In this document: one piece after another, positions 8,182-13,814 of the stretch
Numbering within the stretch: the first letter of the stretch is position 1
Layout: each line of letters begins with the position of its first letter
Translations under genes and position numbers: made by a program
Assembly (NCBI GenBank): GCA_039679545.1
Contig: JBDKUT010000008.1
Location: 1-57,932, forward strand
Direction: 5' to 3'
From: Thermotogota bacterium
Lineage (GTDB): Bacteria > Bipolaricaulota > Bipolaricaulia > UBA7950 > UBA9294
DNA length: 57,932 bases
Notes under the pieces: model-generated
Databases searched by the model: none
Seen by the model: only the letters and a program-made list of their open reading frames with translations
Told to the model about the DNA's origin: nothing

Positions 8182-8349
8182 TCAGATCTGCTCGAACAAC
8201 TCTGCCCCAGCTCCGCAGTCGGGGCACGTCCATCCGTCGGGTAGCTTCTCGAACGGCGTGCCGGGCTTGACTCCGGTGGTCGGATCGCCGACCGCAGGGT
8301 CGTAGATGTACCCGCAGACCGTGCACTCCCACTTAGCTGTCTTGTCCAT
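8182..8349 (-). CDS. Rubredoxin (55 aa, below ORF-track cutoff)
   Basis: [18 protein letters not shown]...[13 protein letters not shown]; two CxxCG knuckles; GGAGG RBS. Confidence 0.96.
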
Positions 8350-8920
8350 CTCTTACCTCCTGGTCTAGAGGACCGGACGCTTCCGCTTCCGGGCTCCCCG
8401 CCTCCTGGACGGTCGGTGCGCCGGCTGCGTGGAACCGAAACTCGTCGATTGTACTCAGCCCGAAATGGCGGAGGAAGTCCTCCGTGACGGTGAGGAGGAC
8501 GGTCCGCCCTTGCTCCTCGCCGCGAATGAGCTCGCGCTCCTCAAGTTCCTTGATGTGCTCGTAGGCCTTGTTCCCTCGCACACGGACGACGTCGGCCTGG
8601 GTAATCGGCTGGTTGTAGGCAATGACGGCGAGGGTGCGCAGAATGGGTTGCGGAATGTCCTGCTGAGGTGCGAGGTGCGCGACGCGTTCGACGTACGCCG
8701 ACTTGACGCGGAGGAGGGCTCGGCCCTCCTCGACGTGGAGTTCGATCCCCCTGGCCGGGTCGGCGTAAACGCCTTGCAGGTCCTCAAGGAGACGGTCGAC
8801 ATAGGCGAGTGGGACATCTCCGAGGATCTTGGCCAGGGCGCGCCGTGTGAGGGGATGCGTGGCGAGGAATAGAGCCGCCTCCACGACGGCGAGGTCGTTT
8901 CCGCGGTGTGCGTCATCCAT
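8333..8920 (-). CDS. scpB: Segregation and condensation protein B
   Basis: [35 protein letters not shown]. Confidence 0.93.
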
Positions 8921-8947
8921 GTCCGTCTCCTTCGGGCCGCGCGAGAG

Positions 8948-9673
8948 CTAGGCTTCCGCTTCGAGTCGGATCGAGATGTCGCCGAGGAATTCCTTCTGCG
9001 AGCAGGAGATCTGGCCTTCCGCGGCGAGGTGCAGGACTTCGAAGAACCGGTGAACGCGCTCTTCTTTGTCGCCCTTGTCGAGCAGCTTGAAGAAACTGAG
9101 GACGCGTCGGCCGGAGAGGAGGCTCTTGATCCTCTCGAGCAGGGCGTGCAGGCGCTCCGAGAAGTCGGCGCCGCCGAGCTCGAAGGCCTGGAAAGGATCG
9201 TATTCGTCCTCGATGTCCACGTGGTCGATGAGCCGTTCGGCTCGCCGCCGGCTGACCTTCATGGCTCCCTGGAGCGCGGTACGGAGGTCGAGGAGCGTGA
9301 CCTGGCGTCGCGGCGCGCGAAGGATGGGGAGGCGGAAGCTGCCCGGATCGACCGGATCGCTGCCGGCCTCGAGGGCTTCATCCACCGCCTCGTCGAGCTC
9401 GGCGACCAGTCCGTCACGATCCGTCGCCCGCTCCTGCGCGAGGAGGAGGTCCGACTTCATGCGGAGGAGAATCGAGCAGGTGAGGACCATGCGGCCGGGG
9501 ATCTCGAACTCCAACTCTCGCAGCGCCTGCAGGTAGTCCCGATAGCGCCGGGCGAGCTCGGAGACGTCAATGTCCCATGGGTCCATGTCGGCGGTCAGGC
9601 GGTGAAGCACACCTTCCCAACTCTGCCCGACGAGTTCCTCGACGGGGATTGCGGCAATCCGCAGTCCTTCCAC
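8948..9673 (-). CDS. scpA: Segregation and condensation protein A (kleisin)
   Basis: MDPWDIDVSEL, LLRMKSDLL, C-terminal FFEVLHLA..Q.E.LGDI; lies between smc and scpB. Confidence 0.9.
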   Translation of the reverse strand: MEGLRIAAIPVEELVGQSWEGVLHRLTADMDPWDIDVSELARRYRDYLQALRELEFEIPGRMVLTCSILLRMKSDLLLAQERATDRDGLVAELDEAVDEALEAGSDPVDPGSFRLPILRAPRRQVTLLDLRTALQGAMKVSRRRAERLIDHVDIEDEYDPFQAFELGGADFSERLHALLERIKSLLSGRRVLSFFKLLDKGDKEERVHRFFEVLHLAAEGQISCSQKEFLGDISIRLEAEA

Positions 9674-9687
9674 GGCAGCGTTCTCCT

Positions 9688-12228
9688 TCAGTTCAGCTTG
9701 AGACTCAACACTTCCGACGCACCATGCTTGATTGTCACGCCGTAGGCCCGATCCGCATGACGAACTGTTTCCTCGTTGTGGGAGACAACGATCACCTGGA
9801 TCCGCTTCGCGTACTGCTGCAGCATCCGGGCGAGGCGACTCGCGTTCATGAGGTCCAGCGCGGCATCGATCTCGTCGAGGATGAAGAACGGGGCGTTCTG
9901 GTGCTCCTGGATGGCGAAGACGAACGCCGTCGCGACGAGGGTCTGCTCGCCTCCCGACAGCGCATCCAAGACGTGCGGTTCCTTGTCGGGCGGGTGCGCC
10001 TTAATCAAGAGGCCGGACGAAATGTCACCGGGGACCTCGAGTTCGAGCGTGCCGCTCCCGCCCTCGAACAGCTCACGGAACAAACGGTCGAATTGAATCC
10101 CGACCGCCGTCAGGGTCTCAAGAAATCGCTCGCGCTTTCGTTCCTCAATCTCGCCGATCAAACGCTCGATCTCGCGCTTCTCTTGCTCGAGGGCGTCAAC
10201 ACGTTCCCGGAACTGGTTGAACTCCGCTTCGTACGCGGCGTACTCGTCGATCGCGCGCATGTTGATCGGCTCGAGGTGTTTGAGCTGGCGTCGGTTCTGC
10301 TCGACGCGCCGCTCGAGTTCCCGAAGGGGAGCGTCGACGTAGTAGTCCGCTGGCCGCTTCTCCTCCTCGCCGAGCGTCTCAAGCTCCGTCTGGGCTTCCG
10401 CTTCCTGCCTCTCGTAGCGGGTCATCGCCCGGCGCAGGTTCTCCAGACCCTGGTACGTCTCGCGGCGCTTCTCGCGCAGGTCGCGGAGCTTGTCGCTCCG
10501 GTCGGAGGCCTCACCCTTGGCGCGCGACTTCGTCTCCTGGGCCGCGGCGGCCTCCTGTTCCTTCGCCTCGAGCCGGGACGCGAGCTCCGCCAACTCTTCC
10601 TCGAGCTTCTCGGCGTCCTTGCGAAGCTTGGCGATGTGCTGTCGCCGCTCGGCGACGTCGAACCCGCCATCCTTCGGCTTCGCGGCGGGCTCGGCCTTCG
10701 CGCCGGGCGTCGGCCTCCATCCTCCGGAGAGCGCTCCGCCTTTGCTCTGCATGTCGCCGTCCTGGGTCACGACGCGGACGCCGTCGATCGTCTTGACGGA
10801 CTCGAGGTTTTCCGCGACGACGGTGTCCGAGAGGACGTACTCGAAGGCGCGGCGGTACTTCTCGTCGAACGTCACGAGGTTGAGCGCGTAGTCGATGACC
10901 CCGGGAAGCTTGAGCGCTTCCGCGGAGGCGAGGCTCTTCCGGACCGTGACCAGTCGGCGGAGCGGCAGGATGCGCGCCCGTCCGAGTCGCTTCTCTTTCA
11001 AGTAGTTGATGCAATCGATGGCCGTCTCGCGGGAGTCGACGACGAGGTCTCCCAGGCTTCCGCCCGCCGCCGTCTCGAACGCAACTTCGAATCCGGCCTT
11101 GGGGGAGGCGAGGGACGCGACCGTTCCGTACACGCCCCCGTACTTCCGCTCGATGAGCGCATCCACCGCCGGGTTGACGCGGGCGGACACGGTCCCGTCG
11201 GCGGCCTTCGCGGGCGCCGCGGCGCGCATCCGGGAAATCTCGTCGATCATCTCCTGGATGTTGTGAATCTGCTGGCGCTTGAAGTTCAGCTCGCCTTGCT
11301 TGTGGAGCATCTCCGACCGCACCCGCTCCACGTCCTTGATCATCGCGATCTGCGTGTCGCCTGCGAGGTCCTCGCGCATCCCTTCGAGTTCCCACTCCTT
11401 GTTCTCGATCTCCGCGTCGAGTTGCGCAACCTCCTTCTCATGCTGCGCGATGCGCTCGTCCATTCCTTGGCGTTCCGTCACGGCCTGCTTGAGCTTGTCG
11501 GCGATGCGCTGCCGTTCAAGGTGGCGGATCGAGTGGTCCAAGCGCTCTTGTTCCTGCATCAGGTTCTGGTACTCAAGGGCCGCGTCGCGCTCCTTCTGGA
11601 GCGCGACCAGCCGTCGCCGCCGCTCGGCGAGGATCACGCGATGGGTATTGAGCTTCGTCTTGACGTCTTTCAGCTCAAGGATGGCTTTGTTGCGTTTCTC
11701 GTCGTAGGAGGCGATGCCGCTGACTTCGTCGAGGATCTCGCGACGGCGAAGCGGCGTGCGGCGCACGATCTCCGTCACGCGTCCCTGTGCGATCAGTTGC
11801 TGGCCGTCGGGATCGATTCTCGCGGCTTCAAGCACCTCATCGATCGTGGTCCGCGGGCAGCTCTTCCCCATGAACGTGTAGGTCGACGACTTCCGCGTGA
11901 TGCGGCGGCCGAGCGCGATCTCCGGGAGCTTCGCTCCCGGGTCGATGAAGCGGTTGAAGACGCCGTCCTCGTTGTCGAGGAAGAGGGTAACCTCGGCCGA
12001 ATCCGCGGGGTCGAATCGTTCTCCACCGTTGAAGATCAGGTGCTCGAGCCGGTCGGCGCGGAGTTGGGACGAGCGCCGTCCCATGACGAAGCTGATGGCG
12101 TCAAAGAGGTTCGACTTCCCCGAGCCGTTCTCCCCGACGATGGCCGTCATCCCTTCGAAGAAAGGAAGCTCGGTCCTCTTGCGGAACGACTTGAACCCCG
12201 CGACCTCCACTCGGTTGATCTTCGTCAT
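9688..12228 (-). CDS. smc: SMC ATPase with hinge and short coiled-coil arms (846 aa)
   Basis: GFKSF, GENGSGKSN, IAQG, hinge GVYGTV...GRARILPL, LSGGE, FILDEIDAALD, VSH. Confidence 0.93.
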   Translation of the reverse strand: MTKINRVEVAGFKSFRKRTELPFFEGMTAIVGENGSGKSNLFDAISFVMGRRSSQLRADRLEHLIFNGGERFDPADSAEVTLFLDNEDGVFNRFIDPGAKLPEIALGRRITRKSSTYTFMGKSCPRTTIDEVLEAARIDPDGQQLIAQGRVTEIVRRTPLRRREILDEVSGIASYDEKRNKAILELKDVKTKLNTHRVILAERRRRLVALQKERDAALEYQNLMQEQERLDHSIRHLERQRIADKLKQAVTERQGMDERIAQHEKEVAQLDAEIENKEWELEGMREDLAGDTQIAMIKDVERVRSEMLHKQGELNFKRQQIHNIQEMIDEISRMRAAAPAKAADGTVSARVNPAVDALIERKYGGVYGTVASLASPKAGFEVAFETAAGGSLGDLVVDSRETAIDCINYLKEKRLGRARILPLRRLVTVRKSLASAEALKLPGVIDYALNLVTFDEKYRRAFEYVLSDTVVAENLESVKTIDGVRVVTQDGDMQSKGGALSGGWRPTPGAKAEPAAKPKDGGFDVAERRQHIAKLRKDAEKLEEELAELASRLEAKEQEAAAAQETKSRAKGEASDRSDKLRDLREKRRETYQGLENLRRAMTRYERQEAEAQTELETLGEEEKRPADYYVDAPLRELERRVEQNRRQLKHLEPINMRAIDEYAAYEAEFNQFRERVDALEQEKREIERLIGEIEERKRERFLETLTAVGIQFDRLFRELFEGGSGTLELEVPGDISSGLLIKAHPPDKEPHVLDALSGGEQTLVATAFVFAIQEHQNAPFFILDEIDAALDLMNASRLARMLQQYAKRIQVIVVSHNEETVRHADRAYGVTIKHGASEVLSLKLN

Positions 12229-12229
12229 G

Positions 12230-12493
12230 TCACGTTTCCGAGAGAGTACTGGGGACTCGCTCCGGGAACAGGCTCAGTTGGATGATGGCTCCGCGGGCAG
12301 GAGGACATGCGGGAGCCTCCAAGCCGACGAGCAGTTGGTCGATCTTGAATCGGTTGTAGTCGTTCGGTTCGGAGATCCCTCCCTCCCATCGAATGATCGA
12401 CGGGGTCGAGACTCCGAGGCGCTGAGCGGTCGCCCGCTTGCTTAGCCCGTTCTCGAGTCGAAAAACCTGAAGTCGCTTCCCAAGTTCATCCAC
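12230..12493 (-). CDS. XRE-family HTH protein with C-terminal QLSLF motif
   Basis: LSKRATAQRLGVSTPSIIRWEGG HTH; stop lies 1 nt before the smc ATG. Confidence 0.85.
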   Translation of the reverse strand: MDELGKRLQVFRLENGLSKRATAQRLGVSTPSIIRWEGGISEPNDYNRFKIDQLLVGLEAPACPPARGAIIQLSLFPERVPSTLSET

Positions 12494-12522
12494 CCTGGAG
12501 GCCCCCCTCCGACCACCGTACC

Positions 12523-12551
12523 AATATAACTTTTGTTACACCCGGCTGCAA
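12523..12551 (-). promoter_or_regulatory. Promoter of the HTH-smc-scpAB operon (TTGCAG-17-TATATT) with a TAAC-N4-GTTA palindrome
   Basis: Seen on minus strand; taacttttgtta overlaps the spacer and -10. Confidence 0.55.
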
Positions 12552-12557
12552 AAAGAT

Positions 12558-12584
12558 CGAGAGGGGCAGTCCATGCCCCTCTCG
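12558..12584 (-). terminator. Rho-independent terminator of the coiled-coil gene
   Basis: cgagaggggca-gtcca-tgcccctctcg followed by a T-run on the minus strand. Confidence 0.75.
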
Positions 12585-12613: not shown

Positions 12614-13690
12614 TTACTTCGTTCCGACGAACCCCCAGATCAGGGAGCCGACGCCCGCGAGCAACGCGACGATCGAGATGAAGTACAGCGTGCTGATGTC
12701 ACTCGCCGTCTTGGTGTCGTTCTCCTCCAGGGCCTGGATCCGAGCGTCGTACTCGGCGAGCAGTTGCTCGTTCGCCTTCATGATGCCCTCTTTGGTGGTG
12801 GCCATCTCCGCGGAGAGGCTGGCGATCGCTTGGTCGAAGCCTTCGAGCTTGGCTCGGTTGTTATCGACCTTGATCGCAAGGGCGGCCATGGATCGTTCGA
12901 GCTCGATAACCTTCTTCTTGAACGTGCCGACGTCCTCATCCTCGAGGGCCTGGACGCGCATCGCCAACTCGGCGTACTGGGACTCGAGCATCGTGATGTC
13001 CGAGCTGAACGTCTGCTCCATGGTCTGGAGATCTCCGTAGAACATGTTGCGGAGGCCGTCGATGTTGCCGTAGACATCAGCCTTGAAGCCGTCCAGTGCG
13101 CCGTAGAGGTCGGTCTTCAGGCTCTCGAAGTCGCCGTAGATTCCGGTGCGCAGGGCTTCGAGTTGCGCGAGGATGTCGGCCTTGAACGCCGCGAACTCGT
13201 TGACGTGCGCGCCGAAGGCGGCCGCTAGGGCATCCGCATCCGCACGCAGAGTCGTGAGATCGGCGCCCTGAGTGTCTAGACGGGCCTTCATCTCATCGCA
13301 GAACGCGGCTAGCTCAGACAAGCCGGCCTCAAGCGCGACGATTCGGGCACTCTGCTCTTGAGCGCGCGCTCCGAGGGCATCGACGTCCGTGCGGAGTCCG
13401 ACGAGCTTTCCTTCTGCGGACTTCAGCTCAAGGGAGACCGCCGAGACGATGTCCTTCAAGTCCTTGACCTTGGCCGAGACGTCGTCGAGGCCGGACATGT
13501 TCCCCTTGACCTCGGTGATCAGCTCAGCCATCACGCTCTGGACGCTGCCGAAGGCGGCTTCCATGGCCGTGAGTTCCTGTTCCAGTAGTGCCGGGACCGC
13601 CGTGGTGGTAGCTTCCTGCGCGTAGCCGACGAACAGGAGAGCGAGGAGCGTCAGGGCGGTCATCGTTGCGACAGAAAGCGCTCTCTTCAT
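12614..13690 (-). CDS. Exported long coiled-coil protein with C-terminal TM anchor (Omp-alpha-like architecture)
   Basis: Signal peptide MKRALS...GYA, heptad and 11-mer repeats, C-terminal LYFISIVALLAGVGSLIWGF. Confidence 0.8.
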   Translation of the reverse strand: MKRALSVATMTALTLLALLFVGYAQEATTTAVPALLEQELTAMEAAFGSVQSVMAELITEVKGNMSGLDDVSAKVKDLKDIVSAVSLELKSAEGKLVGLRTDVDALGARAQEQSARIVALEAGLSELAAFCDEMKARLDTQGADLTTLRADADALAAAFGAHVNEFAAFKADILAQLEALRTGIYGDFESLKTDLYGALDGFKADVYGNIDGLRNMFYGDLQTMEQTFSSDITMLESQYAELAMRVQALEDEDVGTFKKKVIELERSMAALAIKVDNNRAKLEGFDQAIASLSAEMATTKEGIMKANEQLLAEYDARIQALEENDTKTASDISTLYFISIVALLAGVGSLIWGFVGTK

Positions 13691-13814
13691 CTTCTTCCTC
13701 CTTAGTGCGTCAGAAGATTCCGACTGAGCGTAGCGGGGATCGCAGTTTCCGAACGGGACCGGCGCGCTCGACATGTTGGCGCTTTGTCAGTCGGGAGCCG
13801 GACACCTGTCCTGC

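Follow-up and report, generated by a model that had tools for sequence, protein, structure and literature searches.

We examined a condensin operon, which encodes the SMC (structural maintenance of chromosomes) protein with its partners ScpA and ScpB, in a 57,932-nt stretch of DNA from a bacterium of the phylum Bipolaricaulota (GenBank assembly GCA_039679545.1, contig JBDKUT010000008.1; hereafter the window), and found it headed by a gene for an 87-aa helix-turn-helix (HTH) protein of the XRE/Cro-C1 type whose flexible tail carries QLSLF, a candidate motif for binding the sliding clamp DnaN. On balance, the sequence and the structural models point to an XRE protein that would bind the clamp and autoregulate the condensin operon. 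The basis of the analysis is sequence, comparison among relatives and models, and of the two roles that a preliminary description of this DNA had proposed, autoregulation coupled to replication is better supported than that of condensin loader or adaptor. The targeting and control of Smc-ScpAB in bacteria that have no ParB/parS system is an open question, and few direct links are known that join SMC complexes to the sliding clamp of bacteria. The preliminary description had also reported that the HTH gene stops 1 nt before the smc ATG, that the tail holds QLSLF and that the promoter holds a dyad, and each of these is confirmed from the sequence.

Conservation of the tail motif

The HTH gene occurs in the host's own family, here f1, and in a second family, f6. 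A single QLxLF is unremarkable, as 19 are present in the six-frame segments of at least 80 aa in the host genome (2.35 Mb in 163 contigs, 93.55% complete), and it is conservation across relatives that sets both the motif and the promoter dyad above chance. Among 59 complete orthologues the pattern xLxLF is found in 49, of which 44 read QLxLF (QLSLF 22, QLDLF 8, QLGLF 6, QLNLF 3, QLPLF 3, QLQLF 1 and QLALF 1); the non-Q forms are ELALF (2) and SLSLF, PLGLF and LLSLF (1 each). The motif lies 12-19 residues past the domain and 4-15 residues ahead of the C-terminus. L73, L75 and F76 are invariant in an alignment of 18 sequences (A1), in which the linker cannot be aligned. The f6 tails carry xL[SGETP]LF, usually followed by D, in 16 of 27 proteins. 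The conservation of the motif that the preliminary description had singled out therefore holds for xLxLF in both sets, but position 1 is Q in none of the 16 f6 motifs.

The published clamp consensus is QL(S/D)LF, and a 2024 clamp review gives the canonical form as Q-aliphatic-x-[L/M]-[F/L], with QLxLF the tightest binder and position 3 highly variable. QLSLF of the HTH protein fits this canonical pattern and is situated in a tail of low predicted local distance difference test (pLDDT) score. In our estimate the tail very probably works as a short linear motif. SMC, ScpA and ScpB yielded no clamp motif at any locus examined, tail-less relatives included. A second occurrence, QLSLFPGRVP on contig C21, was set aside as a chance match, being in a non-coding frame and a hairpin upstream of an integrase and having no DNA similarity to the HTH gene.

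Many f6 tails (L130-L135 and L139) contain, in addition, a second mini-motif, [AML]PLF or QLSLIG, approximately 10 residues before xLSLFD. Arranged in tandem, two clamp-like motifs might occupy the two pockets of a DnaN dimer.

Predicted binding of the tail to DnaN

The host genome encodes DnaN, and its Y-family polymerase (IMS, IMS_HHH and IMS_C domains) ends in ...RQLPLF, which indicates that the lineage uses the standard clamp motif. The C-terminal motif of this polymerase (Pol IV) has Q at position 1 in six of six f1 genomes (RQLPLF, RQLSLF, QQLSLF and QQLPLF), and in f6 it has P in four of five (RPLPLF, YPLHLF, RPLHLF and RPLSLF) and Q in none of the five. The tail of the HTH protein changes at the same position, with Q in 44 of 49 motifs in the mainly-f1 set vs 0 of 16 in f6, where P, L or M is found. 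A parallel switch at position 1 in two unrelated proteins is what a shared binding pocket predicts.

When the host's own DnaN and tail residues 53-87 were modelled as a complex, on alignments of 29 rows for DnaN and 18 rows for the tail, the score was 0.76 against 0.01 for the best of three controls, although this score may lean on solved clamp-peptide structures. Of 80 solved complexes 58 attained the 0.76 mark, as did 2 of 110 mismatched pairs; these proportions apply only roughly here, since our own alignments were used. Three runs of the model had at least 91% of contacts in common and a partner pLDDT of at least 62, and the controls, with unrelated peptides and with an unrelated receptor, did not exceed 0.01. 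As the preliminary description had suggested, the model places the tail on DnaN, and the predicted site is the canonical cleft beside the C-terminus, between domains II and III; tail residues 67-76 would contact DnaN residues 177-182, 248, 253, 353, 355 and 375-382, positions that are almost invariant among 34 DnaN sequences of the phylum. Overall, we consider it probable that the tail binds DnaN.

Among the predicted contacts, the sole systematic difference between the families is at DnaN alignment position 159, where 22 f1 sequences have S or N and five of five f6 sequences have A. This difference parallels the switch from Q to P or L in the motif, and we draw no conclusion from it. An archaeal reading of the locus, based on PCNA and a PCNA-interacting peptide (PIP) box, had been prompted by SMC_prok_A as top match and by a TATA-like promoter; it was rejected because DnaN is present and PCNA_N had no match in the host genome.

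The DNA-binding domain and the promoter dyad

The HTH protein matches the Pfam families HTH_31 (31.1 bits, cut-off 27) and HTH_3 (26.3 bits, cut-off 23). AlphaFold2 predicts four helices across residues 3-57, with pLDDT >90 over residues 11-50, and gives low confidence (pLDDT 44-57) to residues 58-87, so that in the model the protein is a DNA-binding domain of residues 1-57 followed by a disordered tail of residues 58-87. The closest solved folds identified by Foldseek are P22 c2, DdrO, ClgR, HipB and restriction-modification (R-M) controller proteins, which superpose with a root-mean-square deviation of approximately 1-1.5 A over 53-55 residues and template modelling (TM) scores of 0.55-0.79, at E-values of only ~1e-2, the domain being small. 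Mean column identity in alignment A1 is 65%, with 26 positions invariant across genera, and the conserved surfaces are the HTH domain and the clamp motif, with no third one in A1.

A profile search of 1.84 billion representatives gave 4,451 matches at E<=0.001, of which 248 reach 1e-10 and 8 reach 1e-30; multi-HTH repeat proteins make up most of the highest-ranking ones. The single-domain matches comprise the same orthologue group and a distant, motif-less subfamily (P0044, P0053, P0054, P0056 and P0099). One locus of this subfamily, L170, does not adjoin smc and is found beside HNH-like and other small open reading frames (ORFs); loci L158 and L211 are too short for its context to be read.

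The putative operator is the dyad TAAC-N4-GTTA, with the extended form TGTAAC-N4-GTTATA, in a sigma-70-like promoter (Table 1) that is the single promoter-like site in the 600 nt scanned (shuffle mean 0.0) and is close to invariant over 20 family loci. GAGGGGG is kept at the Shine-Dalgarno position among the family loci, and a terminator-like hairpin further upstream, visible at the matching position in 20 of 20 relatives, sets the operon off as a transcription unit of its own. The dyad is exact in 47 of 60 HTH loci, with one mismatch in the remaining 13; it is found in 25 of 27 f6 loci, often as the perfect GTAAC-N4-GTTAC, and in HTH-less families eight of eight loci lack it within 300 nt upstream of smc. 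On these sequences the HTH domain likely binds the promoter dyad. The host genome holds only three TAAC-N4-GTTA sites in 2.35 Mb, on three different contigs, vs ~7 expected by base composition. Since the dyad is not enriched, we rejected a set of parS-like sites and conclude that it is a promoter element of the condensin operon, not a parS-like array.

The perfect form GTAAC-N4-GTTAC is present in the host genome at two sites only (0.75 expected), C124:9881-9894, which overlaps a -10-like hexamer (TATAGT) shortly upstream of an ORF, and C133:20393-20406, which is intergenic and near a NikR/CopG-like gene. These sites may be further targets of the HTH protein or chance matches.

Linkage to smc and distribution in the phylum

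With a protein query, an orthologue was found in 23 of 24 same-family genomes, and the HTH gene abuts smc in 20 of 20 loci (gap of +1 in 7, 4-nt ATGA overlap in 12 and -17 in 1); the full range of the gap is -17 to +5 nt, mostly as the ATGA overlap. A scan of one genome per species yielded 60 loci. The linkage of HTH gene and smc described in the window extends to relatives, the two genes being adjacent in 59 of the 59 loci that have downstream DNA and in 27 of 27 f6 loci. A metagenome scan, which for the most part brought up further Bipolaricaulota loci, gave 46 of 47 loci with >300 nt downstream that adjoin smc, the exception being L170 of the distant HTH subfamily, and the HTH gene is found beside smc in ~95 species-level genomes. 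Among 184 genomes of the phylum, profile searches identified the gene in 66 of 73 from f1 and 28 of 50 from f6; the 60 genomes from nine further families gave no match.

The gene has also been lost within its range, with smc kept: it is found in none of four genomes of genus g9 and is without a match in 9 of 14 genomes of genus g23, and there are tail-less clades as well. Decayed loci keep a short upstream ORF with the ATGA overlap (G032, G035 and G038 with 36-69 codons, G013 with 42), and this retention after decay of the HTH gene suggests, from sequence, that smc translation depends on coupling to an upstream ORF. The remnants at L095, L097, L093 (G035, G038 and G032) and L099 (G013) retain the first helix, the overlap and the upstream dyad and represent natural 'knock-outs' that can be compared with intact relatives. 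At locus L092 (G030, family f4), dnaA is located directly upstream of smc, ~270 nt apart, with no HTH gene between them.

ParB and SMC were surveyed in the same phylum. The ParB check bears out the contrast that the preliminary description had drawn with ParB-loaded condensin: ParB_N was not found in the host genome, in 24 of 24 or in 72 of 73 family genomes searched, and the dyad forms no parS-like set. ParA-type AAA_31 was not found in the host genome, and Pfam identified no ParB_N/CTPase domain in the 87-aa HTH protein. Families f2 and f7 have an SMC of ~840 aa and neither ParB_N nor the HTH gene. In the phylum as a whole, SMC and ParB appear almost mutually exclusive. The SMC hinge was unmatched in five genomes searched of families f3, f5 and f8, ParB_N-like matches, many of them weak, occur in 11 of 18 f5 and 2 of 9 f8 genomes, and the SMC-bearing families are mostly without ParB_N.

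Organization of the operon

The gene order is HTH, smc, scpA, scpB and rubredoxin, all on the minus strand (Table 1; coordinates are positions within the window). The HTH-smc junction reads ...ACG TGA C ATG ACG..., and smc has no obvious Shine-Dalgarno sequence of its own upstream of its ATG; the best explanation is that the HTH gene is translationally coupled to smc. The transcription unit probably ends with the rubredoxin gene.

Table 1. Features of the condensin operon in the window
Feature	Position	Strand	Description
Terminator-like hairpin and T-run	12558-12584	-	11-pair stem with 8 GC pairs; ends the upstream coiled-coil membrane-protein gene
Sigma-70-like promoter	12523-12552	-	TTTGCA-18-TATATT; alternative reading TTGCAG-17-TATATT
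Dyad TAAC-AAAA-GTTA (TAACAAAAGTTA)	12527-12538	-	In the spacer, running into the -10; putative operator
Shine-Dalgarno-like GGAGGGGGG	12502-12510	-	8 nt ahead of the GTG start
HTH gene	12230-12493	-	87-aa XRE/Cro-C1-type protein, GTG start; ORF and Pfam
QLSLF motif	12266-12280	-	Residues 72-76, in the HTH protein tail
smc	9688-12228	-	846 aa, short-armed; ORF with SMC_N and SMC_hinge
scpA (kleisin)	8948-9673	-	241 aa; SMC_ScpA
scpB	8333-8920	-	195 aa; SMC_ScpB
Rubredoxin gene	8182-8349	-	55 aa; 17-nt overlap with the scpB end

The hinge of the SMC protein occupies residues 365-477, which leaves ~365 residues per side for head half and arm. In NCBIfam, TIGR00281 is matched above its cut-off, and SMC_prok_A scores 637 bits, under its cut-off of 729.4, a shortfall that fits a short SMC of 846 aa against a profile of 1165 positions. 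The preliminary description spoke of a 'mini-SMC', and the short SMC is real, but it is a class-wide trait (821-846 aa, families f2 and f7 included) that is independent of the HTH gene. Short arms are also not new: natural short-arm SMCs are already discussed in PMC5344682, which reports an arm of 344 aa for wild-type SMC of B. subtilis and functional short arms of 253-267 aa.

Both the SMC-hinge gene and scpB are single in the host genome, and PADLOC gave no more than generic SMC-head and ABC-ATPase matches for SMC and none for ScpA or ScpB. For these reasons we take the Smc-ScpAB complex here to be a housekeeping condensin; a defence-system reading (Wadjet or Lamassu) was rejected because the PADLOC matches are generic and the operon keeps its synteny throughout the class.

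An RNA-library contig of 4,284 nt, derived from a relative ~91% identical, aligns exactly on positions 8184-12463, between the rubredoxin and HTH genes inclusive, a weak hint that fits one polycistronic unit, although a contig cannot prove a transcript. It stops at 12463, with the rest of the HTH gene and the promoter outside it, and nothing is made of that end point. One RNA-library run covers a small share (0.05) of the window and three others next to none; these data are contigs only, from which transcription start, strand and level are not readable.

Two features of the surroundings are recorded here. A redox protein seems to be the final gene product of the condensin operon, from its overlap with scpB and its cover by the same RNA-library contig. 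Directly upstream of the operon, a 386-aa coiled-coil protein (12614-13774, minus strand) has an N-terminal signal or transmembrane segment and a C-terminal transmembrane segment, and shorter similar proteins (171-349 aa) hold the same position in families f2, f6 and f7 (L088-L098), a synteny with condensin that reaches more widely than the HTH gene. This protein could be a membrane-anchored partner or a simple conserved neighbour.

Role of the HTH protein

As an autoregulator, the HTH protein would bind the dyad through its HTH domain and regulate its own operon like R-M controllers and antitoxin-type XRE repressors, which act from the same gene position. The tail motif would then insert into the hydrophobic DnaN cleft, as the model and the co-variation with Pol IV suggest. 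In the least certain step, clamp binding would tie the regulator to replication. DNA-loaded clamps behind the forks might titrate the HTH protein off its operator, the DnaN dimer might hold two tails and thereby supply the dimerisation that the four-helix domain lacks, or the clamp might be required for promoter activation, as for MuC of phage Mu. With any of these options, condensin synthesis would follow replication activity.

Several points weigh against this autoregulator. DNA binding and DnaN binding are both predictions, and titration, dimerisation and activation are not distinguishable with these data. The motif is missing in 10 of 59 orthologues (five short forms of 65-67 aa and five degenerate tails) and in 11 of 27 f6 proteins, which are tail-less or degenerate; as judged from sequence it is dispensable, being absent from 21 of 86 proteins in all. 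No f6 motif has Q at position 1, and such substitutions lower affinity in E. coli peptides according to the 2024 clamp review. The success of the complex model may reflect memory of the many solved clamp-peptide complexes, and it would then show likeness only. The right half of the dyad overlaps the -10 hexamer, and part of the dyad's conservation may be conservation of the promoter. The dyad also persists in the three f6 genomes in which the HTH gene has decayed (G032, G035 and G038) and is mutated yet symmetric in G013, which may mean that a different factor reads it or that the decay happened recently.

The loader or adaptor of the preliminary description can be put as a clamp-tethered recruiter, in which the HTH protein, on DNA-loaded DnaN behind the forks or at a DNA site, would recruit or load Smc-ScpAB in place of ParB/parS. 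We consider this doubtful. The failure to find ParB_N in the host and in nearly all family genomes, or AAA_31 in the host, would suit it, as would translational coupling, which implies an HTH protein at least as abundant as SMC; the complex model and the co-variation count here too, and a eukaryotic precedent is available in the recruitment of Scc2 by PCNA (PMC10497406). However, the same short SMC exists in f2 and f7 with neither ParB_N nor the HTH gene, which argues that the HTH protein is not needed for SMC function there, and smc was retained through repeated decay of the HTH gene or of its tail (genera g9 and g23 and the tail-less clades). Moreover, the three dyad sites fall below the number expected, the protein has no conserved surface for SMC beyond the HTH domain and the five-residue motif, and SMC, ScpA and ScpB carry no clamp motif. 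Coupling to replication as proposed by the preliminary description is thus favoured in the form of autoregulation, and its loader or adaptor is left unsupported by the f2 and f7 SMC and by the repeated decay. That the HTH protein recruits or loads SMC at all lies, in our estimate, between doubtful and improbable. In one specific version, which is improbable, ParB has been lost from the phylum, and the HTH protein, produced in step with SMC and tethered to the clamp, would use the DnaN that stays behind the fork to label newly copied DNA and would guide Smc-ScpAB to it.

It is also unlikely that the protein is an ordinary autorepressor whose tail motif serves another partner (SMC/ScpAB, RNA polymerase, or a protease or adaptor that recognizes a degron) and resembles a clamp motif by coincidence. 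The invariant core is only L-x-L-F, Q is missing in all 16 f6 motifs, short hydrophobic motifs serve many systems, and the pass of the model may derive from memorised structures. A different partner does not, however, predict that position 1 should shift in parallel with the Pol IV clamp motif; the two commonest forms, QLSLF and QLDLF, are exactly the published consensus, and the controls with unrelated peptides and an unrelated receptor stayed at their low scores. Very improbable is a small ORF that acts mainly as a translational-coupling leader for smc, with a motif and a dyad that have no function of their own. The short ORFs kept with their ATGA overlap after decay, and the lack of an obvious Shine-Dalgarno sequence for smc, fit such a leader, but the column identity and the 26 invariant positions in a protein of only 87 aa, its confident fold and a motif conserved within a variable tail all speak against it.

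Comparison with known systems

Small XRE proteins of R-M controller and antitoxin systems come first in the operons they regulate; their genes often overlap the following gene, and a dyad within their own promoter serves as operator. The HTH protein shares the fold of this group (C.AhdI, C.BclI, HipB, HigA2, ClgR and P22 c2, in the TM range given above). Unlike it, these proteins dimerise by their own helices and have no clamp motif, and their cargo is a nuclease or toxin instead of a housekeeping condensin.

The nearest counterpart for the tail is MuC of phage Mu, a transcription factor for which the clamp motif QHDLF and the clamp itself are both reported to be needed for late transcription, the clamp being required for MuC promoter activity (bioRxiv 10.1101/2025.01.04.631326). 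MuC is a phage protein of the Mor/C HTH family with an N-terminal motif, and it controls phage late genes, whereas the HTH protein is chromosomal and XRE-type, with a C-terminal motif and a host condensin operon as its putative target; no Mor/C family was among the Pfam matches of the locus proteins. The T4 sliding clamp gp45 similarly couples transcription to replication through the short tails of gp33 and gp55, as described in the MuC preprint, but that clamp is phage-encoded and its partners bind RNA polymerase, and neither an HTH operator protein nor a connection with SMC is involved. The statement in the preliminary description that no such system had been described therefore needs to be narrowed: a clamp-needing transcription factor is known in MuC, and it is for a clamp-linked HTH factor at a condensin operon that no paper was found among the open-access papers searched.

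With Pol IV/DinB, Pol II and Hda, whose clamp binding is set out in the 2024 review, the HTH protein shares a five-residue Q-L-x-L-F motif in a disordered terminus, and it would share the same DnaN cleft; those are replication and repair enzymes, and the HTH protein is a non-enzymatic DNA-binding domain of 57 residues with such a tail. That review mentions neither SMC nor MukB, and the relationship of MukBEF to the clamp in bacteria is indirect only in the literature found. ParB/parS likewise involves a protein that binds a DNA site and is functionally tied to Smc-ScpAB, but the HTH protein has no ParB_N/CTPase domain and no cluster of sites, and sister lineages do without it. In eukaryotes, PCNA is reported to bring in the cohesin loader Scc2 and also Eco1, so that a replication clamp recruits an SMC-complex factor by a short motif (PMC10497406, PMC7571713). 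The clamp, the PIP motif and the factors are different there, and the analogy applies only if the HTH protein is a recruiter.

If the link to the clamp is true, the HTH protein would be, as far as we have found, the first cellular, non-phage transcription factor wired to the beta clamp, and the supply of condensin, possibly also its loading, would be coupled to replication. If it were a recruiter, it would parallel, in bacteria, the loading of cohesin guided by PCNA, and prokaryotic condensin would have a second way of being targeted, one coupled to replication. The locus offers a compact handle on these questions, consisting of one DNA-binding domain and a five-residue motif, with tail-less and gene-less variants as natural controls and components small enough for in-vitro reconstitution although the organisms are uncultured. 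In its best reading, the HTH protein combines three known kinds of protein: clamp-motif proteins, XRE autoregulators and clamp-dependent transcription factors.

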